This document shows positions 4,060 through 61,473 of a stretch of 64,000 bases of DNA, one piece after another. The stretch covers positions 248,001-312,000 of the forward strand of contig BAAIJX010000003.1 of assembly GCA_054600435.1 (NCBI GenBank), read 5' to 3'. The position numbers and the translations under genes are program-made. How positions within the stretch are numbered: the stretch's first letter is position 1; the number at the start of each line of letters is the position of its first letter. The notes beneath the pieces were generated by a model. That model searched no databases. It saw nothing but the letters and a program-made list of their open reading frames with translations, and was not told the DNA's origin. The stretch is from Neophaeotheca triangularis (Eukaryota).

Positions 4060-5013
4060 TCTAGATTAATATTGTACCTCTGAGATGCCTGTTCGGATAC
4101 CTAAGGTACCTACACACCTCCCCTCCTAGAGAACTACGACATTGTGCACGGATGCGGCTCAATCAGTCGAGGTGCATTCTCTCTCCACATGGCACTAAGA
4201 AAATTGACAAGGTTGAAAGTAAGTCAAGAGTGTCTTTGTATGTCGCTGTCTCTGCCTCTGCCTCTGCTGCTGCTGCTGTTGTGTGAGGTGCTCTATGCGG
4301 TGTGTGCGCCCGCTCATTTCACCTCTCCCCCGCCTGGTCCCGCCCTCTCCTCCCAACCCTCCCCTCCCCTCCCCTCCCCTTCCCCCTCCATCCATCCCTC
4401 ATATCCAACCCCATCTGCCTTGGTGAATCTACCTACCTAGCCTAGCCATAAGGTACCTCCTACCTTACCTACCTAAACTACCTACTACTACTAACCTAGC
4501 TACCTACCGGCCTCACATCCCATCCACCACTCCGCTGCCTTCCATCCCCCCTCCCAATCCCCGTGACGTCGAATTGGCCCATAGGCTTACCAGGGCAGCT
4601 TACCTATTCTCACCCAAACTGCACCACCAAAAGCTTGGCGAGCGTCACTGCTACCACAGCAGCTTCATACCTAAGCTTGACCTAAACTTCACTTCCGATA
4701 CCGCTCGCTCCAAGCGCTGCGCGAAACCTGACCTTCACCTTCAACCTCACCCCACCACGTACTTGTACCATTTCCCCAGTCTACATAGTACTTACTACGT
4801 ACTCGCCGACACTTCCGCGCCGATCCTAATCTGCACCTCGACCTTTTTGTACTTCAAGAGAGCAAACGACGCTGCCTGCGCCTACGCCCTCCTCGTACCT
4901 CGCCGTCCATCGCGCTTGCTTGCTACACCCACCGCAAACAGCTGCACGTCTCGACCTCTGACAACCACAAGCTCAAAGCACATACTGGGGTCGGACACGC
5001 CGGCCCTTGATGT

Positions 5014-7692
5014 ATGCCCGCCATGAGCGCCGCGATCGATGACGACGAACTCTCTCTCTCCATCCACAACGCCAATGCCCGTCGCGAGTCCCGCGAAAGT
5101 AGACCCGGTCCATCCACGAACCCAGACAATGGCCTTTCCCCAGCACCGGCTGTGCGCGCACCTTCAAATCAGCCACCACCACAAGCCTCTCGAGCAGTGC
5201 AAAGACTCGGACAGTACAACGTGGTCAAGACGCTGGGTGAAGGCTCTTTTGGCAAGGTCAAGCTGGCCATCCACCAGATCAGTGGACAAAAGGTGGCTCT
5301 GAAGATCATATCGCGCCGCAAGCTCGTCACACGCGACATGGCCGGCCGCATTGAGCGCGAGATCCAATACCTGCAATTGTTGCGGCATCCACACATCATC
5401 AAGCTCTACACGGTCATTACAACGCCTGGGGAGATTATCATGGTGCTGGAGTACGCCGGGGGTGAACTTTTCGATTACATTGTGCAGAATGGAAAAATGG
5501 CTGAAGACAAGGCGCGCAAGTTCTTCCAACAAATAGTATGCGCGGTTGAGTATTGTCACAGGCACAAGATTGTCCACAGAGATTTAAAACCCGAGAACCT
5601 TTTGCTGGACGAGCAACTCAATGTCAAGATTGCCGACTTTGGTTTGAGCAACATCATGACCGATGGCAATTTCCTTAAAACAAGCTGCGGTAGTCCCAAC
5701 TACGCTGCACCCGAAGTCATTAGTGGTAAGCTTTATGCTGGACCCGAGGTGGATGTCTGGAGTTGTGGTGTCATTCTCTACGTCCTGCTGTGTGGGCGAC
5801 TGCCATTCGACGACGAATACATTCCCGCGCTATTCAAGAAGATTGCCCAAGGCAACTATACCATGCCGGCATACTTATCATCAGGAGCCTCAAGGCTGAT
5901 CAAGAAGATGCTGCAAACGAACCCAGTCAACAGGATTTCGGTTGAAGAGATACGGCAAGATCCCTGGTTTCAGAAAGACTTGGCCGAGTACCTTCAGCCA
6001 CCAGTGGAAGAATTCCTTGACACTGGCGTTGTCGATCCTGAGAAGGCAATAGACCCCAAAACGCTGTCTACTAAGAGCACTCCTCTCGCTGTGCAAGAGA
6101 AGCTGCACGAAAGTGTCGTTGGCAAGCTTGGCAAGACTATGGGCTACGGCGCCGACGATGTTCAAGAGGCTCTCGCAAAGGACGAACCCAGCGCCATCAA
6201 AGATGCATACCTGATCGTGCGTGAAAACCAGCTGATGAAAACAAACCCTTCCCTAGCACATGACCAGCCAGAGTTCATGGCGCAATCACCCCCTACTTTC
6301 CAACATTCCCTGCAGTCGCCTCGCTCGCCCACAGCGAAACCGCCAGCATCGCCGATGCCAGGGGTAGACCATCCACGCCACGGTAGCACTGGGTCCTCTT
6401 CCATCATGGAAGCTCGTTCGCCCGTCTCAACCATCGGTATCCTACCATCGTCCCTCCCGGACTATCACACGGCATACATGCATGGTCATATTAACAAGTC
6501 ACAAACCCCTTCAAATGCAGAAGACGGTAGTAATTTGACCGAACCAGGCCGTCCGCGCACCAAAGAAGAGCAAGAAGAGACGGCCAAACGACTGAAACCT
6601 CACAGCAAGAGCTCCGCCAATCTTCATCGCAATGCCGAGAAGCCAGAACCGATGAGCTCGATACCGGAGAAGCAAACCAAGAAACCCCGACCAACGAAAT
6701 GGCAATTCGGTATACGCAGCCGCAACACCCCGGCCGAAGCTATGCTGGCAATTTACAAAGCCCTTCGCAAAATGGGCGCACAATGGGAAGTGTCGCAGAA
6801 GGGGGAAAACCAAGGGAGTGGTGACAGTGCCGACCGTAGTCCAGAACGCCAACAAGGCAGCAGCAGACGCGACGAGCCCAGCCCAGAATACAGCGACTCG
6901 GACCCGGAAGCCGGCACCGATCCCGAATACGCTACGCACGAAGAGCAAGAAAAGCGCCGTCGTAAGCGTGAAGATGAGCGTAATGGCTCCGGCAGCCGAC
7001 CACGAGGCCGCGACCGCCACGGCCGCTGGGACGACTACGGCTACGCCATGCCCGAAGACCCCTGGATCATCAACGCCCGCTTCACCAAAGCTGGCATGTT
7101 CCCACCCGGCATGGCACATCCCTCCTCTACCCACTCCTCCCGCGTCGACCTCCAGCACCCCCGCAGCGAAACCCCCGACAGCGCCGAAGCCGCCGCGCGC
7201 AGACGCTCGTCCACTTACTCGTCCTCGTCGACAGTGATGTCGCAACTCTCCTCCGAGCACGCCGCGGCCACGGGACCCCCGCCCGCCCCCAGCGGCACAA
7301 CAATGTCCACGAACACCTCGACGCACACCTCGTCAGCCAATTTCTGGCCCCGGCCCGAAGACAGCGTCTGGGTCTACGTCACCATCCAACTCTACGCCAT
7401 CGAAAAGGACTTCTTCCTCGTCGATTTCAAGTGCGCGGGCTACGAGCGCTTAGTCCCCAAACATCCACGTCAGAGTAGTAACGCTAGCTCTTCTTTTTCC
7501 GCCCCGGATATGCAGGGTCAGCAGAGGGAGGGTGGTGTGGAGGGGGATGGGGGTGAGGAGGTCTTGGGTCCGGATGGGGAGGTTTTGGTTGGTGAGGGCC
7601 GCAAGGAAGAGGAGAAGGATATTTCGAGCCCGTTTCCGTTTTTGGATGTCGCGAGCCGGTTGATTATTCAGTTGGCTGAGGCGAATGATTAG
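5014..7692 (+). CDS. SNF1: SNF1/AMPK catalytic alpha subunit (intronless)
   Basis: Kinase motifs GEGSFGKV, HRDLKPEN, DFGLSN, activation loop FLKTSCGSPNYAAPE; UBA-like region; C-terminal WQFGIRSR and IQLY...FLVDFKCAGYE typical of fungal Snf1. Confidence 0.97.
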   Translation: MPAMSAAIDDDELSLSIHNANARRESRESRPGPSTNPDNGLSPAPAVRAPSNQPPPQASRAVQRLGQYNVVKTLGEGSFGKVKLAIHQISGQKVALKIISRRKLVTRDMAGRIEREIQYLQLLRHPHIIKLYTVITTPGEIIMVLEYAGGELFDYIVQNGKMAEDKARKFFQQIVCAVEYCHRHKIVHRDLKPENLLLDEQLNVKIADFGLSNIMTDGNFLKTSCGSPNYAAPEVISGKLYAGPEVDVWSCGVILYVLLCGRLPFDDEYIPALFKKIAQGNYTMPAYLSSGASRLIKKMLQTNPVNRISVEEIRQDPWFQKDLAEYLQPPVEEFLDTGVVDPEKAIDPKTLSTKSTPLAVQEKLHESVVGKLGKTMGYGADDVQEALAKDEPSAIKDAYLIVRENQLMKTNPSLAHDQPEFMAQSPPTFQHSLQSPRSPTAKPPASPMPGVDHPRHGSTGSSSIMEARSPVSTIGILPSSLPDYHTAYMHGHINKSQTPSNAEDGSNLTEPGRPRTKEEQEETAKRLKPHSKSSANLHRNAEKPEPMSSIPEKQTKKPRPTKWQFGIRSRNTPAEAMLAIYKALRKMGAQWEVSQKGENQGSGDSADRSPERQQGSSRRDEPSPEYSDSDPEAGTDPEYATHEEQEKRRRKREDERNGSGSRPRGRDRHGRWDDYGYAMPEDPWIINARFTKAGMFPPGMAHPSSTHSSRVDLQHPRSETPDSAEAAARRRSSTYSSSSTVMSQLSSEHAAATGPPPAPSGTTMSTNTSTHTSSANFWPRPEDSVWVYVTIQLYAIEKDFFLVDFKCAGYERLVPKHPRQSSNASSSFSAPDMQGQQREGGVEGDGGEEVLGPDGEVLVGEGRKEEEKDISSPFPFLDVASRLIIQLAEAND

Positions 7693-13017: not shown

Positions 13018-14316
13018 ATGAGGGCCGCCACACTCGCTACCCTGGCCATCGCCAGCTACGTCTCCGCCACCCCGGTGCAGATGTGCGGCGACAGCCCCTG
13101 CAACGCCAAACCCACGACCTACGCCTGCAACCCGGCGCACAGCTACCCGGGCGGCGCAACCTGCGTCTCCCACGACGGCAGCCTGACCCTCGTACAGCCA
13201 CCGGCCACGACCTACGCCTGCAACCCGGCGCACAGCTACCCGGGCGGCGCCACCTGCGTCTCCCACGGCGGCAGCCTGACTCTCATGCAGCCACCGGCCA
13301 CCAAGTCCGCCGGCTGCCCCGCCAAGACCACCGACTGCCACGACGCCCACACCACCCCTGTCGCGCCCCCCGTCGTCACCGTCCACCGCACCACTTACGT
13401 CCCGGCTCCCACTCCCCACTGCGACGGTGCTGGCAATGGCAATGGCAATGGCGGCGGTGACTGCGCCGTCCACCCGACTCCCAAGATGCCTTCCAAGTGC
13501 GGCGACGACAAGGGCTGTGCTTCCCACGTCGGTAAGCGTGATGCTGAACATGAGCCCGAGGAGGCTGATGAGTACGCCGAGGCTTACGGCGAGGATGACG
13601 ACGAGGATGACGACGACTTGTCTGGCGACGGCGAGGAGATGGACGACGGCGCCGAGTATGGCGACGACGATGGCGACGACGAGGACATGGACGATGGCGA
13701 TGACGATGGCGAGTGCGACTGCGAGGATTGCCCTTGCGACGCTGAGGTCCCTCCGCCCGCTAGATCCACTCCCCCGGCTGGAACTGCCCCTCCCGCTGAG
13801 TCCGCTCCTCCCGCTGAGACTGCCCCTCCTGCCGGCTCCGCTCCTCCCCCTGGTGCCGTCACCGTCACAAGCTGCCCCGAGGACGCGGTCGCCACCCCAC
13901 CTGCCGGCATGTCTCCCCCCGCCGAGTCCGCTCCCCCGGCCGGATCCGCTCCCCCAGGCGACATGGCACCCCCAGCCGAATCCGCGCCCCCGGCCGGCAT
14001 GGCTCCTCCCGCCGAGTCCGCGCCCCCGGCCGGATCCGCTCCCCCAGCCGACATGGCACCGCCAGCCGAGTCCGCCCCACCCGCCGAGCAGACACCCCCG
14101 GCCTACGCCAACCCGAGCCAAAGCGGCCCCTACAACGCAGGCAACAACATGCCCTCGGGCTCGATCCCGGCCGTCGTCTCGCAGACCTCCGGCGGCGCGG
14201 CGGTGCCCTCCAACAGCGCGCCCGTGGCTTACGAAGGCGCCGCGAGCAGCGTCGGCATCAACGGCGCGTTGGCGTTCGCGCTTGCCGTTGTCGGTGGTGG
14301 GGCCATGGTTTTGTAG
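13018..14316 (+). CDS. Secreted, probably GPI-anchored cell-wall protein with Cys-rich repeats, acidic tract and PPAxSA hexapeptide repeats
   Basis: Signal peptide MRAATLATLAIASYVSA; 31-aa repeat x2 (93-bp period at 13114/13207); D/E tract; C-terminal YEGAASS plus hydrophobic tail. Confidence 0.88.
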   Translation: MRAATLATLAIASYVSATPVQMCGDSPCNAKPTTYACNPAHSYPGGATCVSHDGSLTLVQPPATTYACNPAHSYPGGATCVSHGGSLTLMQPPATKSAGCPAKTTDCHDAHTTPVAPPVVTVHRTTYVPAPTPHCDGAGNGNGNGGGDCAVHPTPKMPSKCGDDKGCASHVGKRDAEHEPEEADEYAEAYGEDDDEDDDDLSGDGEEMDDGAEYGDDDGDDEDMDDGDDDGECDCEDCPCDAEVPPPARSTPPAGTAPPAESAPPAETAPPAGSAPPPGAVTVTSCPEDAVATPPAGMSPPAESAPPAGSAPPGDMAPPAESAPPAGMAPPAESAPPAGSAPPADMAPPAESAPPAEQTPPAYANPSQSGPYNAGNNMPSGSIPAVVSQTSGGAAVPSNSAPVAYEGAASSVGINGALAFALAVVGGGAMVL

Positions 14317-15053: not shown

Positions 15054-16982
15054 TCACGCGGTTCCATCCTCGTAGTCGCCAAAGAAAATCACAAGCACGG
15101 AGAGATCGTCCCTGAATTTCGCACTGTGCGGTGGACGCATGCTCATGATGCCCGTGAACAAATCGTGCCGATTGCCGCCAAGAGCGTTTCGCACGAGATG
15201 CGTACTGCAGTTGCCGTCAGCCGGGTCGACGATGAAGTGCTCGGGGCTGACGGTCCAGCGCGGGCCGTTGGGAGTTGGGTGAACGTCTGTTTCAACGGAA
15301 TGGCGGCTTAAGGGGACGGCAGCGGTTTCGTCGGGATTTCGTTTGCCGGCTCGGCGTCTAAAGGATTTGAAGATTAAATCTTCGTTGCGTATGTCGTCCC
15401 AGACGGTTTTGACCCATTTGAATGGGTTCCTGATGGAATCGAGTTTCTCGTGAATTTGACGAGCGCGTGCAAGCTCTTCGCTGGAGTAATTTTGTTGAAG
15501 CCAGAGGTCTACTAGTTTCACGGCGTCTTCGCTTTTAACGTGGTCCCAGAATTCCTTTGTAGCGATTATCAGAAAATTGGGATTTTTGGGGTCTTTTTCA
15601 TGCGGTGGCAGCTGCTGCTCGAAGACTTCAGGCTCCGCGGTCACGTAAGGGGGTGATGTAATGGCACCGTTGGGGCTGAAGGCCGAACCCCAGAATGTTT
15701 CGCTGGCGAGCCGAGTGAGGGACTCGGGCCACTTCCAGCGTGCATAGCCAAATGCACGGGTAGCGGTGTCGCTGATAAGAAGTCAGTATCAAGGCAACGG
15801 AATAGATATGAGGGACTGTTGTCGAATTGAAGCGGGTGATCGGCTGGGAATGCTGAATTCACTAAGGCCTGCGAAGACGTACCCGGGAAGCCGTCCTGTT
15901 TCTGGGTTCAGAACGTCCTCGTTGGAATGCTCCTTCTTGAAACGTGCTATTGCGTCTTTGTCGAAGGCAGTCTGGTCAGGGGACATTCGCTGCGTTTCGT
16001 AGCTACCACTCTGTGCATTCCAGCAACCGAGAACAGCTTGGCCATCTCCCAAGCGTGCTACGCGAAGCGCCCTTGTCCCAGAGTTGTACATGGCGTAGAT
16101 GGCACTTGAGCCGGTGGCAGCGTATGCCAGATCTGCTATGACATGATTACGAGTCGCAGACCTAGCTTCGATCGCTGCTTTCGCGCGCTCGAGTTCAATG
16201 GAGTCGAAGTCGACGAAAGCTTTCTTCATCAAGCCTGCGACTTCTTGGTTATTATGAGTATAAGGACGACTCGAGAGTTCGGTGGTGATAAGACGTTCAG
16301 CGATGAAGGTTGGGAAGGACCTCGAAAGAGTGTGAGCCGTCTCTGGGCCTCCGTGACCTGCGAATAACGACCAAGAAGTCCTGCAGATGAGCCATTAGCT
16401 TCCTACATCGGTGGTGTCGGACTTGTCTATACCGTACCAAGATGAGGGACCATGGAAGACGGCCATCGATGTTACATGGTGCGGGGGGTTGTTTGCGGGC
16501 AAATGACATTGATGCGTCCAGGAGAGACTGTCGGCAGCGGAGGCAGATCGATCAGCCAATTCCTGGCAGGCGGATTCCAGGGTTACCAATTCGTGTTGTA
16601 GCTGCGACGTGGATTGCGCGGCCTGGGCTGCTTGGGCTGCTTGCACGCCATTGTATACTTGGAGGCAAAAGGCACCAAAGGTGATGGCGATGCCACCCAG
16701 GACGATTTTTCTCACGGAGAAGATCCTCTTAAGGTTCCTCTTGGGGTTCCTCTTGGGGCCTTGCTGGTGGTCTTGTCGCTGCTCCGGCCTTTGAAAATAG
16801 GTCGGAAGAGGTTCGTCTTCACGCGAGTCTTTTGGGCGATACGCATAGCCACGAGTGGGACGCAGACTCGTCCGCTTTGAGACATACAGCGGTATTCCGT
16901 AATGGGAAACGATTGATAGTGACTCGTGACAGCATTGTGGGTGCCACTGGTACTGTCGAAGCATGCGAATGATACCTCCCAT
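15054..16982 (-). CDS. PP2C-family (PTC5/pyruvate dehydrogenase phosphatase-like) protein with degenerate catalytic motifs; exons ~16982-16438, 16380-15883, 15771-15054
   Basis: Introns GTACGG...GCTAAT...CAG (16437-16381) and GTACGT...CTGAC...CAG (15882-15772) join three ORFs in frame. Motifs KKAFVDFD, GDGQAVLG, TRAFG.ARWKW, PPYVTAEPEV, NCSTHLVRNALGG, FRDDLSVLVIFF. Start codon uncertain. Confidence 0.82.
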
Positions 16983-17284
16983 TCGAAGTTTATACAGTAT
17001 ATCTTATCAGTACAGTACGATCGCGCTAACGGCTTGGCGTCTAGGTCTGGGTCTGGTCAGGAGAGGCAAAAGAAAGTCTCGGATCAAGTCTACTACCCTA
17101 CTACCTCCTACACCTTTGATCTGTACTTCATAATACATCACCAGCACACTTCTTTTTCTGCTCCTCCTCCTCCTCCTCATCAGTCGCTCTTTACTACCTG
17201 TACTGTAATACTAGTCAAAAGGTTCCGGAAGTAGACGCTATCCCGCTCATTCCCCTTTTCAATCCACCTCTCTCTTCTTGAGCG

Positions 17285-19438
17285 ATGCTCAAAGCCTTTG
17301 CGAGATGTTCATCATCTCTGCCCCGATCGACCGCTCTCCTCCCCAGCTTGAACTCTACCATTCCACGCCACCTCGCTGCTAGTCGCATAGTAACTCGGAG
17401 CGCCCCTAGGATATTGGTCGCTTCCCGTGGCCTCCATCAGACTCGCGCTCGCCTTCAAGATGCCGCTGGGGCCGCGCAAGGGGAGGAGGCAGAGGCACGC
17501 ACTGTCGATGCCCCAATTACAAAATTCGAAGAGCTAGGATCAAGGGGTATCATCCATCCCAACATCGTCAACACTCTCACCAAGAATATGGGCATGGAGA
17601 CAATGACCGAGGTGCAATCGGCCACGATTAATCAAGCGCTGAAGGGCAACGACATCATTGCGCAAGCAAAGACGGGAACAGGAAAGACTTTGGCGTTCCT
17701 GCTGCCGATTCTGCAGAACATCATCTCCAGGGACCCAGAACTGGCTCAGCGGTCTTTCTCAAGGAAAGGGCCAAGGACTACCGCCGACGACATTAGAGCT
17801 CTTATTGTGTCACCAACTCGCGAGCTTGCTGAACAGATCGCCGAGGAGGCTCGTAAAATCACAAAAGGGACCAGTGTCATCGTACAGGCAGCTGTAGGCG
17901 GCACTCAGAAGAGCGCAGGTCTACGTGCCATTCAGCGCGATGGCTGTCATATCCTTGTCGGTACCCCTGGTCGCCTAAAGGATATTCTCACGGACCCATA
18001 CTCCAAGGTCCAAGCACCCGATCTTTCCGCGCTCGTCTTCGACGAAGCAGACCGTCTGCTCGACCAAGGCTTCTGGCCTGCGATTCAAGAGATCATGCAG
18101 CTCCTGCCAACAACAGCCGAAACGGACAGACAGACGATGATGTTTTCTGCCACTGTGCCTAGAGAGGTTGTCAAGATCGTCAGGTCCACCCTCAAGCCCG
18201 GCTTCGACTTCGTCCGTACAGTTCGTGAAGATGAAGAGCCTACTCACGCCCGCGTGCCCCAACGCATGGTTACTGTCAATGGCTTCGAAAACTCCATTCC
18301 TGCCATGATCGAGCTCTGCCAACGCGAGATCAAAGCCTCTCAAGAGCCTGGCGCCCGGCCCTTCAAAGCAATCGTTTACTTCAACAGCACTGCCGAAGTC
18401 GCCCTCGCCCGCTCCGCTCTCCGAAACCTCAAAACCCCCACCGACTCCGAAACCGACCCCTCAGCCTTCAGAAACCGTCCCCGTCATCCCCTAGCTCCGG
18501 CCCGCATTTACGATATTCATGCCCGTCTCTCGCAAAATCAGCGTACGAACGCTGCCGAATTCTTCCGCAAGTGCGACTCCGGTATTCTGCTTTCCTCCGA
18601 CGTCACAGCTCGCGGCATGGACTTCCCCAACGTTACTCACGTCATCCAGATGGGCCTTCCATCCAGCCGCGAACAATACATCCACCGCCTCGGCCGCACG
18701 GCACGCGCGGGCAAAGAGGGCGAAGGCTGGCTCGTGCTGTCGCAAGTCGAGGCAGCCGAAGTGCGCAACCGCCTGCCCAAGCTGCCCCTGCAGCCCGACC
18801 AATCGCTCGAGACGGCCGGTCTGGACCTCAGCCGCGCCGGCCAAATCCCGGCCAACGCCGCCGAGATCCTCAAGATGGCGCAGACGTCGATGATGGAAGT
18901 GCCTCGCGAGGAGAAGTTCAAGGTCTACCAAGCGCTACTCGGTGTCTTCGGCTGGTTCCCGCGGAAAGCTCTGCTCGTGCAGGCTATGAACGACCTGGCC
19001 ATGTATGGCTGGGGTTTGAAAGAGCCACCGATGATTGCGCGGGGGCTGGCGACGAAGCTGGGGCTCGCGCGCATTCAGGGCGTTAGGATTGGTGTGGATC
19101 CTGGCCTTATGGAGGGTAGGGATAGGGAGGATGAGGGAAGAGGCGGCATGGGGATGCGTGGTCCTCCCAGGGGTCGGGAAGATAGGTTTGCTGGAAGGAG
19201 CGGCGGCGGTGGTGGGTTTGGTGGTTCGAGAGATGCTTATGGCGGTAGTTCGAGGGGCGGCTTCGGCGGGAGAGAGAACAGGGGCGGATACGGCGGTGGA
19301 CGCGAGAGGGATGGTGGCTTTGGCGGCCGTGAGAGGGAAGGTGGGTACGGGGGTGGCCGTGGTGAGAGGGGTGGTTTCGGCGGCCGAGGAGGCGATAGGA
19401 GAGGCGGGAGGGAGCGCATCGACGACCCATTTGCTTAA
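17285..19438 (+). CDS. MSS116: Mitochondrial DEAD-box RNA helicase (MSS116/CYT-19 family)
   Basis: Presequence-like N-terminus; AKTGTGKT, PTRELA, GTPGRL, DEAD, SAT, ARGMDFPNVTHVIQ, YIHRLGRTAR; RGG-rich C-terminal tail. Confidence 0.9.
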   Translation: MLKAFARCSSSLPRSTALLPSLNSTIPRHLAASRIVTRSAPRILVASRGLHQTRARLQDAAGAAQGEEAEARTVDAPITKFEELGSRGIIHPNIVNTLTKNMGMETMTEVQSATINQALKGNDIIAQAKTGTGKTLAFLLPILQNIISRDPELAQRSFSRKGPRTTADDIRALIVSPTRELAEQIAEEARKITKGTSVIVQAAVGGTQKSAGLRAIQRDGCHILVGTPGRLKDILTDPYSKVQAPDLSALVFDEADRLLDQGFWPAIQEIMQLLPTTAETDRQTMMFSATVPREVVKIVRSTLKPGFDFVRTVREDEEPTHARVPQRMVTVNGFENSIPAMIELCQREIKASQEPGARPFKAIVYFNSTAEVALARSALRNLKTPTDSETDPSAFRNRPRHPLAPARIYDIHARLSQNQRTNAAEFFRKCDSGILLSSDVTARGMDFPNVTHVIQMGLPSSREQYIHRLGRTARAGKEGEGWLVLSQVEAAEVRNRLPKLPLQPDQSLETAGLDLSRAGQIPANAAEILKMAQTSMMEVPREEKFKVYQALLGVFGWFPRKALLVQAMNDLAMYGWGLKEPPMIARGLATKLGLARIQGVRIGVDPGLMEGRDREDEGRGGMGMRGPPRGREDRFAGRSGGGGGFGGSRDAYGGSSRGGFGGRENRGGYGGGRERDGGFGGREREGGYGGGRGERGGFGGRGGDRRGGRERIDDPFA

Positions 19439-56797: not shown

Positions 56798-59700
56798 TTA
56801 TTTCTTCCCCGTAGCACTCTCGGGCTGCATCCCATTCGCCACCTCCTGAAACCCGGGCGGCACCTTCCACCCATGCGTCTGACATGCCCTCACACACCCA
56901 TCCGCAGCCTCGCCAGTCCCATAGTCTCCACTCGCCCTGACATCCAACTTCGCAGGCGGGTCGCTAGCGATAGCAAGTCGCACTTGCAGCAACACGCTCT
57001 CCATGCTACTCACACTGCTCCAGCCAGTGTTGGTCAAGAGCTCCATGCACATGGCGCCGCCCATGACGATATGACCGCCGCCGCCTTGAGCGAAACTTAG
57101 GAAGCGCGGACGGATGACGCGGATGTAGGGTGGCGAGAAGGGGTAGTCGGCGCCGAAGCGGATCTCGAGGACGACGCTGGTGATCTTCTTGTCTTTCATC
57201 TGTTGCACCAAAGGGAGGGGTTTGGGGTTCTTGGTGCTGCTCCCTGGGAGCGAGAGCGTGTGGAAGCTGTGGAGTTCGACGATCCATTGGTAGGCGTTCT
57301 CGATCTTGTCGACTTCGATGTACCAGCCTAGGTCCTCTGGGGCGGTGGAGTTCTGGATTTTGGCCAGATGCTGGAGCTCCTTCATCAGACGTCGAGTGGT
57401 GCTGCTGTTGGCGTAAGTGGGGACTGGCATGATGGGAAGGGTGGAATGGTCGAGAGAACCGGGCACGAAGTCGGTTCTCGCGGCTGCCTTTCTACCCTTC
57501 TTCGGCGACTTGTGGCGAAGAGTGAGGTCTTGACTAGCCCCAGCGGTAGCATCACGATTAGCAACCTCGTCGTCGCTCAACAAAATGTCAATGTCCTCCG
57601 CCTCTGTAGCTACACTAGCACCGTCATCTCCGACAGCGTCATCGCTGTCCAACACAACGGGGTCGTCAAACCCGCCTTTGCCCTTTAGTTTCTTGCTCGC
57701 GTGTACGTCGTCTGGTTGCTTCTGCTTACCGGTCTTGGTGATTGTCTTGATAGCGGAGGCCGGAATCATGATTTTGTGGCCGCTAAGACCCGACGGTGTC
57801 CTGGAAGGATCTTGAGGATGCTCGCGAATGGGCTGTCGCTCGTCTCCAGCCTTGGTGACGCTGCTCTGATCCATGGAAACGAAAAGATAGCGCTGTTGAA
57901 TCCACTCGCACTGCTTGACGACGTAGAAAGGGTTGCTGGATTGAAACTCGTCCGGAGCGTTGACGATCTCGTTGAGCGCTAGTGCAGATGTCACCTTGAG
58001 TACGCTGTTTGGCCATGGCATGCCCGAGGTTCCTCCACGATGGCCGCCGGAGTATCCAGTCGAAGTATTTGCGTCCTTCGCAAAGTACACACCGTCACCG
58101 TAAGCGCGGCCGTGGTCGACCCTGTCAAAATGGAGCCCCGAACGAACGATGGAATGCCAGTTCATAAGTGGGCTTCCATGCCAGGCAAAGATCGTCGAAA
58201 ACTTCAAGTCCTTTCGCTCGGAAACTTTGCGGACCTCTTCTCTGAAACGCTGCTCCTTATCGGGAGCCCCCATGGCAAAACGGAATTGCATGTAGCCTTT
58301 CATGCCGAAAACGCGCTCTTGCTGCTTTGGCCTTTCGAGCAACCCTTGATCGCCGTCAACTTCCATGATGCACGCACGGTTACTGGCGATGATCCAACGC
58401 AGAAGGCTCAAAGCGCTAGGCGAGATGCGTTCGACCCACTTTGCAAGGTTAGGGGGGTACGACTTTGCGAGGAACGTCTGCGTTTCCTTAACAGAGGGCA
58501 ACGTATCCAGAAGTTGGCACATTGCGGTTTGCTGGTCAGCTTCATTGAGCTTCTCGAAATCCTGTGCATAGACGCGAATCTTCGCCTCGCGCCAACCTTG
58601 CGACTCAGCTGGGGTAGACTTGGTAGCTTTGTCGGCATCTTGGGCTGTAGTGGCTGGCGCCGTCCGACCAAGGTACGTCGGGTGCGTGCCTTTGCACTGT
58701 ACCACGATCGGCTCATCGATTTGGATCGTAGGGTACAAGTTGGTGTTGCGGACCCTGCAATGCAGCTCCCTGGCTTCCTTATCATCTTTGAGGCTCATCA
58801 CGATCCACTGGCCTCTTTTCACAGGGCAACCGCCGGAGGGTCGCTTGGAGAATGTCAGCTCTCTACTACCGCTGTTGTACTGCACGGTATACGTGGGGGG
58901 CTCTTCTGCCGTTGAGGGTTGCGGGGTATTGGTGTTGCTGGCGTTGTGTAGGGGCATGCCGTAGGCGTCGACTGGGCCAGAGAATGGATCGTAACGACCG
59001 CCCTTGAGGAACGGAACGACAAGCGCCAAGCCAATGGGAAGGTCTTTGAGCCTCCTCGCACTGGCACCGGCATAGCAAAAAGACACCAACAAGTCGACCA
59101 CATAGGGCTGAGCCATGACCTCATGTTCGATGCTTGGTCCGAATCCCATTGCCATGTATTGAAAGAGGCAGAGATGGCTGTCGCAGACGTATGGCTTGAT
59201 GGCTTCGACCTCCTCGTCGAGCTTGCGGTGACAGACCAGGCAGAACTCTGTGCACCGAACGAAGTGGCGAAGGGTGAATTGCATGGCAAGTAAAGGGAAA
59301 GAATGCTTGAAGAGCTGGCCGCTCTCTGCAAAGTGATCGCCCATAACAATGGCGGGTAGGTCTGTTTTAATGTCCTCTGGCCTGAAATACTCGTCTGGTA
59401 TGTTTTCGCCGTGCTGACCGCCTCCTCCGGCCTTCGCATGCTGGTAGTTGAAGAAGTCTTCAGCGCCACGCCAGCTTAAGTGAGAGCTGCGGTAGCGGAG
59501 AATCTCCACAAGGCGCTCTTCGAGTAGATCCGCAAGTGGTTTCGAGATGAAAATGTCGTGCATCATGTCACCAAGACCGACCTCGATCGCTTCTGGGAGC
59601 TGGTTGCTTTTGAGACTGTCGCTGTCGACTTTTTTTGCCACGGTGAATGCGCTGATAGCCTCGCGGAGCGTTGGTTTGTACCTCTTGCCAGCACAGACTC

Positions 59701-60463
59701 GCATGCCGATGTTGCTGCGCACGAAGGCACTTTCGAGAGTTTGAAGGTCCTCGTTTGTCTTGTAGCCGTTCGGATACTGAATGATGAGGACAAGGTACTC
59801 GCTGGGGTCGATCTGCCAAGCTTGACAGACTTCTTCGGTCAAGCGAAGCTTTGACATGCGGATGGAGATGGACACATAACAAGTATTGCCCTGCAGAAGT
59901 TGCCCTTGATAGCCGACCTTGAAGCCGCTTGCCTTGGCGATTCTGAGATCCTCGCGTATTGCCTGACAAAAAGCATTGCTTTTGGATGTGTTGCGCGTCG
60001 AGGACTGACCATCGAGTGTCGTGAGTACATTGCCGTGATCGTCGAGATGATCATCAGCGTAGACATCGTCCTCATCGTCGTCCTCAGGTTCCGAGTCGTC
60101 AACGAAGGAATCTGCCATGTAGCTGTCTCCGTCACATGCCTGCCCAAGGGCACTTGCGACCATCTCGAGCAACTCAGAGACGGTCTTGCGGTTGGTTCCA
60201 GAAATATTTTCCAAAGCTGCGCCGATTTGAGGTGGAGCATCGTCCCCGCCGAAGATCATATACTCATGATTTTTTGGGTAATCGGAAAGCTCTGGAACCA
60301 TGGCTGTGACCTTGACCGGCTTGCTCGACTGGGAATCACTGGGAAGAGTGAAAAGAAACTCAAACTGGCCATCATCTTCGCCAGCCTTGATGTCGTGGAT
60401 GCCTTCGGGGTGGATGCCTTGGATTGCCGTTTGAAGGTCAGTGTTGTACTGACGGCGCGGCAT
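56798..60463 (-). CDS. Multidomain PARP-like ADP-ribosyltransferase fused to a C-terminal UBE2Q-type ubiquitin-conjugating domain (intronless)
   Basis: Cys cluster FCLVCH...VCDSHLC; ART motifs AWHGS..NWHSIVRSGL, AYGDGVYFA, LALNEIVN, PFYVV...QRYLFV; E2 motifs RRLMKEL, YQWIVEL, DYPFSPPYIRVIRPRF, GGAMCMELLT..GWS. First ATG at 60463. Confidence 0.9.
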   Translation of the reverse strand: MPRRQYNTDLQTAIQGIHPEGIHDIKAGEDDGQFEFLFTLPSDSQSSKPVKVTAMVPELSDYPKNHEYMIFGGDDAPPQIGAALENISGTNRKTVSELLEMVASALGQACDGDSYMADSFVDDSEPEDDDEDDVYADDHLDDHGNVLTTLDGQSSTRNTSKSNAFCQAIREDLRIAKASGFKVGYQGQLLQGNTCYVSISIRMSKLRLTEEVCQAWQIDPSEYLVLIIQYPNGYKTNEDLQTLESAFVRSNIGMRVCAGKRYKPTLREAISAFTVAKKVDSDSLKSNQLPEAIEVGLGDMMHDIFISKPLADLLEERLVEILRYRSSHLSWRGAEDFFNYQHAKAGGGGQHGENIPDEYFRPEDIKTDLPAIVMGDHFAESGQLFKHSFPLLAMQFTLRHFVRCTEFCLVCHRKLDEEVEAIKPYVCDSHLCLFQYMAMGFGPSIEHEVMAQPYVVDLLVSFCYAGASARRLKDLPIGLALVVPFLKGGRYDPFSGPVDAYGMPLHNASNTNTPQPSTAEEPPTYTVQYNSGSRELTFSKRPSGGCPVKRGQWIVMSLKDDKEARELHCRVRNTNLYPTIQIDEPIVVQCKGTHPTYLGRTAPATTAQDADKATKSTPAESQGWREAKIRVYAQDFEKLNEADQQTAMCQLLDTLPSVKETQTFLAKSYPPNLAKWVERISPSALSLLRWIIASNRACIMEVDGDQGLLERPKQQERVFGMKGYMQFRFAMGAPDKEQRFREEVRKVSERKDLKFSTIFAWHGSPLMNWHSIVRSGLHFDRVDHGRAYGDGVYFAKDANTSTGYSGGHRGGTSGMPWPNSVLKVTSALALNEIVNAPDEFQSSNPFYVVKQCEWIQQRYLFVSMDQSSVTKAGDERQPIREHPQDPSRTPSGLSGHKIMIPASAIKTITKTGKQKQPDDVHASKKLKGKGGFDDPVVLDSDDAVGDDGASVATEAEDIDILLSDDEVANRDATAGASQDLTLRHKSPKKGRKAAARTDFVPGSLDHSTLPIMPVPTYANSSTTRRLMKELQHLAKIQNSTAPEDLGWYIEVDKIENAYQWIVELHSFHTLSLPGSSTKNPKPLPLVQQMKDKKITSVVLEIRFGADYPFSPPYIRVIRPRFLSFAQGGGGHIVMGGAMCMELLTNTGWSSVSSMESVLLQVRLAIASDPPAKLDVRASGDYGTGEAADGCVRACQTHGWKVPPGFQEVANGMQPESATGKK

Positions 60464-61473
60464 GATTGTGTTGAGGTTCCGTTTGGTCGGCTCTCGGTCG
60501 AGGGGGAAGAAGAGGTTACGCAAGTGTCACTACCAGGAGCCTGCAATCCGGAGGGTGGCTGGCTCGGTAGCGCTGGGTCGGTAAAGACTGAAGAAGAAGT
60601 CGGCTGTTGAAGGAGAGGAAGATGGCTTCTTGTGGCCTGCCAAAGGTGCAAGGCCAGAAGAAGGTGTTGAAAGCGTTGAAGCGTGAGGCGAAAGGCGAAA
60701 GGTGAAAGGTGCAAGGTGCAAGGTACAAATGGAAATGTTGCAAGGTTGAGAGTGAAGGCGAGGTGAGGTTGGAGTTGGAATCCCAAAGCAGTCAAGGCCG
60801 GTGGAAAGTGCGCGTGTTGTCGATGGTTGCACAAGCCGGCATAATACTAGTAGCGCTCCAGTAATGAGTGAGATGACTGTACTCTGCGTGTGTATTATGA
60901 TTGTATGGCGGGAGCGGTGGTGGTGGTGGCTATGGTTAAGGAGTGAAGTGCTGGTAAATACAGTACAGTATGGATAGGTAAGCACAAATGGAGACCTACC
61001 TACAGTACGACGATAATGTGATTCACGATATGGTATGGTATGTAGGTGTAGTGTACCTTAGGCATCTATCGAATCGAATCAAATCGGGCTTGGCGCGAGG
61101 CTGCTGTATCTTGACTTCCAAGGCTGCCTCGAGAGGTGATTCCTACTGCTGCCTGGGCGCGTGAACAGGCAGCAGAGTCTCCCTCGCGCTTGGTGTTGGT
61201 CGTGGTAGTAGTCAGGCAAGTCAGGGCAAGAGCGCACCTGCCGGGCTGTGCCTACCTAGTGCCCCACCCTGCATATGCCAAGCTACCCGCCCCGCATTGC
61301 GCTAAGAGGAGGCACAGTTCCAGGTTAGGTACATGTCGGGTAGTATGCGGAAGCGGACGTCTTCTCCTTTGGGAAGGCATGTCGCTATACAGACAACTTC
61401 CTGGTGCCTTCCTGGTGTCTGCTTCAATCATTCCAATCTACTTGCTACGACGCTCTGGAACCAGCTTGCAGCC

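Follow-up and report, generated by a model that had tools for sequence, protein, structure and literature searches.

Described pseudophosphatases and the Ptc5-like phosphatases

Few pseudophosphatases of the PPM family have been described, namely TAB1, the PHLPP proteins, a domain of Cyr1 and one Talaromyces protein. PHLPP2 shows no detectable activity and carries a single zinc ion, TAB1 carries a single manganese ion, and the ancestral Cyr1 was also a PPM pseudophosphatase (PMC12002173). The kind is therefore already known, and a case within the PDP/Ptc5 family is what would be new. Such a candidate is encoded in a 64,000-nucleotide stretch of the Neophaeotheca triangularis genome (contig BAAIJX010000003.1, positions 248,001 to 312,000; hereafter the window), where a Ptc5-like gene occupies positions 15054 to 16982 of the minus strand. 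With moderate confidence, its product is regarded here as a lineage-restricted PPM pseudophosphatase, likely a non-catalytic mitochondrial binding protein. It would thereby offer a small, clear example of an enzyme that persisted after its catalysis had gone, for which active relatives of ~40% identity are available and in which the metal site has a PHLPP-like change of Asp to Lys.

The closest characterised system is that of yeast Ptc5, which carries a presequence and a transmembrane segment, is cleaved by the inner membrane peptidase (IMP) and acts on Gpd1 (PMC7217942; PMC6506691). The window protein matches the Ptc5 layout of presequence, membrane segment and PP2C domain (PMC7217942), and its nearest solved structure, both by sequence (3mq3, E 8.9e-17) and by fold, is of the Ptc5/PDP1 type. 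It is, however, without equivalents of PDP1 E53, D54, D73, D347 and R222. It differs also from the Ptc5 of its own genome, which belongs to another clade and ends in AKL, whereas the window protein has no end resembling a type 1 peroxisomal targeting signal (PTS1).

PHLPP1/2, TAB1 and the fungal Cyr1 domain share with the window protein the PP2C fold and a degenerate metal site, and PHLPP shares in addition the substitution known in PPM1A as D239K. These are nonetheless old, widely conserved and non-mitochondrial proteins, two of them multi-domain, whereas the window protein is single-domain, mitochondrial by ancestry and so far observed in a single narrow lineage. Nor does it have an equivalent of D60, which PHLPP2 uses for zinc. 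A 2026 survey of fungal pseudophosphatases reports Cyr1 and one strain-specific PPM protein, EEA18836.1 of Talaromyces marneffei, and its main text contains neither the word "pyruvate" nor "Dothideomycetes" (PMC13216928). Compared by description only, EEA18836.1 resembles the window protein as a fungal stand-alone PPM protein that has lost motif Asp residues in a pattern without matching homologs, but it lacks all four motif Asp, whereas the window protein keeps those of the last motif and of GD (PMC13216928). Ptc5R of Fusarium graminearum (482 aa), likewise compared by description only, shows that filamentous fungi can have another Ptc5-like gene beside ptc5 itself (PMC3182220). No PDP/Ptc5-type pseudophosphatase is described among the literature matches listed, whose coverage leaves out most subscription papers.

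Active-site residues and predicted fold

Residue numbers follow the public model of the gene, GAB7358690.1 (P0004), an NCBI hypothetical protein of Neophaeotheca triangularis that was found by a protein search with exon 3, over which its identity is 100%. When this protein is aligned with bovine PDP1 (3mq3), E53 and D54 of the latter correspond to H131 and H132, D73 to A152, D220 to D257, R222 to Q259, D347 and G348 to K383 and E384, and D445 to D532; the PPM1A numbers used below (E37, D38, D60, D239 and D282) were assigned through motif identity and established knowledge. In motif 1, the Glu-Asp pair gives way to His-His (16476..16481, minus strand, as are all features of the gene), a change common to P0097, a protein from a close relative. 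The metal-bridging Asp of the DGH motif (PPM1A D60) is replaced by A152 (GCA; 16359..16361) and, as aligned, the Asp of AFGD by Y320 (TAT; 15744..15746). The Asp-Gly of PPM1A D239/G240, which holds an M1 metal ligand, has become K383-E384 (AAG GAA; 15552..15557), a reversal of charge. What the alignments show as preserved is D257 (16044..16046), followed by G258 and Q259 where Ser and Arg are expected, and D532-D533 (PDP1 D445/D446; 15105..15110), D532 being the Asp of the last motif (PPM1A D282). Of the residues by which active PPM enzymes are recognised, the bridging Asp, the M1 Asp and the motif-1 Glu-Asp (His131/His132 or a gap) are thus gone, and the last-motif Asp and the GD Asp remain.

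The initial annotation of the gene had read AGHGG, TRAFGY and ATKEFWD in place of the canonical motifs, with GD and RDD preserved, and the spliced translation agrees on every count; GDGQ for GDSR and KE for DG are further changes that it had not listed. Chance is an unlikely source of this pattern, for among 126 homologs, where the altered motif columns are filled, 98-99% of rows have Asp. The same annotation held the motif-1 Glu-Asp to be missing, and the pair is indeed gone, but replacement by His-His is more likely than absence: the two residues stand against Glu-Asp without a gap in two alignments (A1 and A2), and with a gap in another alignment, which comprises 238 rows.

The expected consequences can be read from PPM1A, in which M1 is bound by D60, D239 and D282, the first of these residues also forming the bridge between the two metals. 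Its kcat/Kmetal falls from 2900 to 0.093 in D60A and to 0.082 in D239K, the PHLPP state, each a loss of more than 10,000-fold, and changes of E37 and D38 have a mild effect (PMC3730172). Because the window protein has both of the severe changes, there are strong grounds to regard catalysis as probably lost. The earlier proposal of a catalytically dead protein is in this way supported by the PDP1 mapping and the PPM1A kinetics, according to which two-metal catalysis would probably be beyond it. No literature on Asp mutants of PDP1 was found.

The fold, by comparison, is predicted to be intact. P0004, whose domain spans about residues 95-549, matches PF00481 with 75.3 bits against a cut-off of 20.3 (E 7.7e-21), and its AlphaFold model adopts a PP2C fold (predicted local distance difference test score 83.4; predicted template modelling score 0.78). 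Foldseek returns PDP1 as the best match to this model (E 8.6e-20), with PDP1 and PP2Cs occupying the top ranks, although the model leans towards an active fold because its input alignment consisted of active homologs. A search of the ESM Atlas likewise gave PP2C clusters only. A degenerate metal site within an intact predicted fold is what defines a pseudophosphatase at the level of sequence, and the window protein combines the two.

Phylogenetic position

No full-length relative above ~44% identity was found among 5.8 billion proteins, nor among 1.8 billion representatives in the best 150 of 901 matches. The homologs form three clades: Ptc5 proper; a group whose members are 470-500 aa long and come from Aspergillus, Trichoderma, Cadophora and others, presumably the kin of Ptc5R; and a third clade that contains the window protein and whose named members are Dothideomycetes. 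Trees were computed quickly from 58 chosen rows and more carefully from 36. The clade of the window protein receives a Shimodaira-Hasegawa-like approximate likelihood ratio (SH-aLRT) support of 98 (22 rows), and a 26-row clade that contains it receives 100/98, with the exact place of the window protein unsure. The Ptc5 of the same genome (L002:304-2184, on G000:C14) is an intact, single-exon gene with all Asp motifs and a PTS1-like AKL C-terminus, and it joins other Ptc5 proteins at 100/100. A sister grouping of the two is rejected by the approximately unbiased test (p-AU 6.2e-65). The gene had been annotated as a PTC5/PDP paralog, which is right in that it is Ptc5-like and nearest to PDP1, but a fresh duplicate of PTC5 is ruled out; as judged from sequence, it belongs to a separate Ptc5-like clade, distinct from Ptc5 proper and mostly Dothideomycete in these searches. 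Protein and family searches of the genome, the counts of which are lower bounds, gave these two as the only PDP-like genes and no second gene of the target type.

Active members of the clade include P0084 of Teratosphaeria nubilosa (KAF2773274.1), P0089, P0099 of Peltaster fructicola (QIW97179.1) and P0092 of Elsinoe australis. At 34-43% identity, they have in common with the window protein the motifs TYFQ, RPY, P-x-TGR, FWG..PNG..PPY, W.VSP.HF and NALGG.R.DLF. Among the 21 nearest members, the catalytic Asp residues are present wherever the sequences cover them (the DGH Asp in 20 of 20, the DG Asp in 21 of 21). The loss thus came late in the history of the clade and is not a family trait. The window protein, by contrast, sits on an end branch of 1.75 (58 rows) or 1.65 (36 rows), as against 0.12 and 0.085 for the Ptc5 of its genome. 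Whether orthologs share the losses had been posed as a check in the initial annotation, and the answer is divided: loss of Glu-Asp recurs in P0097, but Asp residues of the D60 and D239 type are kept across the nearest clade members.

Among 236 homologs, 185 had the four core columns filled. At least one Asp is absent from 22 of these, several of which resemble gene-model errors, and at least two from five; only P0176 and P0179 lack the equivalents of both D60 and D239, and the residues that replace them are unlike those of the window protein, whose changes to A152 and K383 have so far been observed in no other lineage. Degenerate motifs were observed in the Ptc5-like proteins P0179, P0182, P0176, P0227 and P0015 (Coniochaeta ligniaria), which read EG/NEG, NAA, RG/SAG, TAS and TVG/RND. 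All five are placed apart from the window protein in the trees. The Asp-less proteins fail to form one group in the 36-row tree, which makes a common origin doubtful, although long branches leave the grouping unsure. Catalytic loss thus seems, from these sequences, to be recurrent in Ptc5-like paralogs.

Gene structure and a frameshift in the presequence

The region 15054-17003 holds three minus-strand open reading frames (ORFs) in a single frame with stops between them. Enumeration of the possible junctions between these ORFs yielded two introns with good, preserved splice signals, both of which contain in-frame stops (one in the first, more in the second) and have junctions identical to those of P0004: intron 1 (16381..16437; 57 nt, GTACGG...GCTAAT...CAG) and intron 2 (15772..15882; 111 nt, GTACGT...CTGAC...CAG). 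The two canonical introns of the initial annotation are in this way borne out. An alternative intron 2 of 45 nt and GC donors were dismissed, the 111-nt intron being the one that aligns with homologs. From ATG 16982 to 15054 the spliced frame is open (1761 nt, 586 aa plus stop). Exon 1 (16438..16982, from this ATG) encodes the remainder of the presequence with an RGY|A-like site, the conserved TYFQ motif, a transmembrane helix and the start of the PP2C domain. Exon 2 (15883..16380; PF00481, E 1.9e-05) encodes AGHGG, helices, the GSSA strand, GDGQ, DQT, EH and GR, and exon 3 (15054..15771; PF00481, E 8.4e-10) encodes TRAFGY, WKW, PPYVTAEP, ATKEFWD, RDD and the stop, as well as the clade motifs WTVSPEHF and HLVRNALGG. 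A contig from another public run (X1; 227 nt, depth 3.5) covers 16298-16524 with no differences and repeats the His-His and Ala codons.

The gene had been called intact, which holds only for the frame opened by an upstream ATG. This ATG (16980..16982), taken as the start in the initial annotation, is in frame with the catalytic domain and lies in the weak context TTCGA-ATG; a second in-frame ATG, at 16964, lies in TTCGC-ATG. The ancestral start appears to be ATG 16935, preceded by CACA, and CACA-ATG is a favoured start context in fungi. It opens the presequence MLSRVTINRFPLRNTAVCL (16879..16935), of which 18 of 19 residues are identical to P0097, and P0004 starts here too. In the window, however, this frame is off-frame with the rest of the gene and ends at 16819 after 38 codons. 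P0097 (179 aa, from Logan) corresponds to translated exon 1 of a close relative; from its beginning, MLSRVTINRLPLRNTAVCL, it extends without any change of frame to RPTRGY and TYFQ and onwards over the hydrophobic segment to PANNPPHH. Relative to it, the window has one base more within 16872..16878, where the frame switches between P0097 residues 19 and 22; the exact base is not fixed because the relative is known from protein only. The first ~35 residues from ATG 16982 are accordingly an off-frame reading of the true presequence MLSRVTINRFPLRNTAVCL.

The mitochondrial targeting initially ascribed to a presequence-like N-terminus had therefore been drawn from the wrong frame. Over their first 30 residues, readings from either 16982 or 16964 have a net charge of +1, compared with +6 in P0097 and +5 to +9 in 11 of 11 homologs, so that all 12 comparison proteins fall between +5 and +9, and the P0097 form of the presequence looks ancestral. 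The single transmembrane segment of the same annotation has fared better: a putative inner-membrane anchor, IVLGGIAITFGAFCL (16662..16706), follows the presequence and aligns with hydrophobic segments of clade members. By simple hydropathy alone, the best 19-residue Kyte-Doolittle mean is 1.64 in P0097, and the predicted model contains a long helix at 50-91. The C-terminus, DGTA, is not PTS1-like, and a clear SKL-type end is likewise missing in clade members. By analogy with yeast Ptc5, the only one of these proteins for which import and IMP cleavage are established, we infer import of the ancestral protein to the inner membrane or the intermembrane space.

P0004 contains the off-frame residues KADESASHS, and its assembly therefore has the same indel. 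Its model includes an extra intron (16852-16789, minus strand; 64 nt, GTGGCT..AAG) that is without a branch consensus and removes the conserved TYFQ, a doubtful intron by which the public model would mask the frameshift. The strain of the P0004 locus tag is reported to be haploid, and its assembly was sequenced by Illumina at 188.8x and polished with Pilon (PMC13064199, which also includes another N. triangularis strain), all of which makes an assembly slip less likely; an error in the contig of P0097 is conceivable. None of the 50 GT-AG candidates listed as introns that could rescue the frame has a branch consensus, and the best rescue donor, GTATGT at 16887, would delete TYFQ. In-frame and frameshifted alleles both seem to exist, a pair with which function can be tested in this culturable yeast. 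As the indel falls in the true presequence, the window allele may be null or mistargeted, and from its sequence it is probably null, hypomorphic or mistargeted.

Retention after catalytic loss and alternative explanations

A pseudophosphatase origin would run as follows. The gene would descend from an active member of the Ptc5-like clade, and on the branch to this black yeast the bridging Asp would have become Ala, the M1 Asp Lys and the water-holding Glu-Asp His-His. A two-metal centre could then not be built and hydrolysis of phosphoproteins would not be expected, but the fold would be preserved, together with the flap and with surface motifs typical of the clade. Imported through its presequence and membrane anchor, as Ptc5 is, the protein might use the flap and these motifs to hold a partner or phospho-client in a pocket lined by Lys383 and the histidines, which would replace the charge of the metals, and might shield this client from the active Ptc5 of the genome or present it to that enzyme. 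The window allele would carry a young indel, such that full-length protein could arise only by initiation at the upstream ATGs, which would give it an N-terminus of low charge, or by an unproven splice.

The alternative that survives best, possible though doubtful in our judgement, is slow decay: the phosphatase would have been dispensable beside Ptc5, selection would have relaxed, and the frameshift would be the first hard lesion in a gene that never acquired a function as a dead enzyme. Several observations weigh in this direction and against a retained pseudophosphatase. The frameshift in the presequence suggests that this strain, at least, can do without the gene, and the end branch of the window protein is the longest of the 58 rows. 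The core is also relaxed, as seven of 54 conserved non-motif columns are altered; of the 72 columns conserved at 90% or above, the median homolog keeps 99%, and only one of 126 homologs keeps as few as the window protein. GC content at third codon positions is low, at 0.587, as against 0.61-0.72 in 10 in-frame genes of the window (12 were taken and two dropped because they were cut off-frame) and 0.605 in the Ptc5 of the genome. The scattered Asp-less proteins P0176, P0227, P0179 and P0182 suggest that these paralogs often degrade, and deletions of ptc5 and ptc5R in F. graminearum gave no phenotype (PMC3182220), so that such paralogs may be weakly selected. The X1 contig, which spans intron 1 unspliced and stops short of the indel, is probably DNA and silent on expression, and thus lends no RNA support. 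Catalytic death is itself tempered by the finding that the D239K single mutant of PPM1A, when overexpressed, still acted on mitogen-activated protein kinases (PMC3730172). The reach of the case is moreover limited to one narrow lineage, in which the chance of simple decay is real.

Conservation after the loss argues the other way. Measured against the 126 homologs, the window protein keeps 57 of the 72 most conserved columns, 18 of 33 columns conserved at 75-90%, and 22 of 130 conserved below 30%. Losses are concentrated on the catalytic face, with four of six metal-site acids lost as against 11 of 66 other residues (p 0.015), and eight of 18 motif residues as against seven of 54 (p 0.008), the residue sets following the PPM motifs and having been fixed after the losses were known. 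The eight catalytic-face codons required at least 11 base changes within 24 nt. A neutral simulation that counted stops alone covered the stretch of 1,644 nt that follows the indel, so that the presequence frameshift lay outside it. With 0.05 changes per site, the frame survived in 7% of 2000 runs, with 0.1 in 0.8% and with 0.2 in none of 2000, and an assumed rate of frameshifts lowers survival further. A fully neutral route cannot, on these figures, yield both the catalytic-codon changes and 1,644 stop-free nucleotides. As a short neutral phase that spared the frame cannot explain the active-site changes, most of these probably arose while the protein was still kept, and a frame open for far longer than neutral decay permits suggests a protein that outlived its catalysis. 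Splice signals are intact, and a signature of repeat-induced point mutation is absent, the TpA/ApT ratio of 0.53 lying inside the range of neighbouring genes.

When P0097, which shares PPHH and hence the Glu-Asp loss, is compared with the window, differences are seen at 10 of 113 residues of the N-terminus, at none of 52 in the domain part of exon 1 and at two of 13 codons in the intron read-through. The contrast between N-terminus and domain (p 0.020, or 0.061 without the residues of the indel) hints only weakly at constraint following the Glu-Asp loss, as it concerns exon 1 of one relative, with a boundary chosen after the sequences were seen and no ratio of nonsynonymous to synonymous rates. 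DNA of relatives was sought in two metagenome scans, whose 30 and 592 pattern matches gave no confirmed case. Exons 2-3 of the relative behind P0097 were absent from the five hits of a short-protein search, a result that speaks neither for nor against their presence. Taken together, the graded conservation, the enriched catalytic-face losses and the open frame lend indirect support to the earlier view that the gene was kept after catalysis was lost, with scaffold, substrate trap or regulator as candidate roles.

A bolder form of the pseudophosphatase explanation seems unlikely to us. It holds that a mitochondrial PDP/Ptc5-family pseudophosphatase is fixed across the genus. Through the changes of Asp to Lys, Gly to Glu and Glu-Asp to His-His, its acidic metal pocket would have been actively remodelled, to give either a reader of phosphoproteins that works without metal or a sensor in which His residues bind a single metal. 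In this halotolerant yeast, such a protein would control how far Ptc5 clients, Gpd1 for example, are dephosphorylated. If it were true, the dead proteins P0179, P0182, P0176 and P0227 would mark a repeated evolutionary route, and the frameshift of the window would be a natural knock-out allele.

It is quite improbable that the protein was re-purposed as an enzyme or metal binder in which H131, H132 and H154, together with D257, D532 and D533, form a new single-metal site (e.g. for zinc) with residual or different hydrolase activity, comparable to the zinc site that arose in PHLPP2 by active-site remodelling. Change from Glu to His needs two base changes and from Asp to His one, His-His is common to P0097, three Asp residues of the site remain, and the single zinc of PHLPP2 and single manganese of TAB1 are precedents (PMC12002173); yet Lys has taken the place of the M1 ligand and Ala that of the bridging one, zinc-bearing PHLPP2 has no detectable activity (PMC12002173), and the placement of His-His depends on the alignment. 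An ordinary, active PP2C in which the Asp changes stem from errors of sequencing or of the gene model can be dismissed as highly improbable, for although gene models matter here, as the TYFQ-removing intron of P0004 attests, the altered codons are spread over three exons, two of the codon changes are repeated in X1, one in P0097 and all in P0004, and no alternative junction found restores the Asp residues.

Neighbouring genes and other loci

Head-to-head with the phosphatase gene, at a distance of ~300 nt, lies an intronless DEAD-box helicase gene with an RGG-rich tail (17285-19438, plus strand; PF00270 and PF00271), which we take to be Mss116-like and mitochondrial. A promoter shared with it could keep the phosphatase gene passively transcribed. 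On the other side, the protein encoded by 13018-14316 (plus strand) looks secreted. Two CNPAHSYPGG repeats occur in it, as do an acidic tract and repeats rich in Pro/Ala, its hydrophobic C-terminus resembles a glycosylphosphatidylinositol signal, and Pfam gave no match. Elsewhere in the genome, a PP2C domain occurs within a 1779-aa open frame (L003; G000:C49:153822-154589), presumably the adenylate cyclase Cyr1. Within the window, two ORFs lying close together on the plus strand, 630-2204 and 5011-7692, read like a regulatory subunit of protein kinase A and the Snf1 kinase, and we assume them to be such. A 1242-aa ORF on the minus strand (56798-60526) reads, presumably, as a PARP-type domain followed by a C-terminal UBC-like domain.

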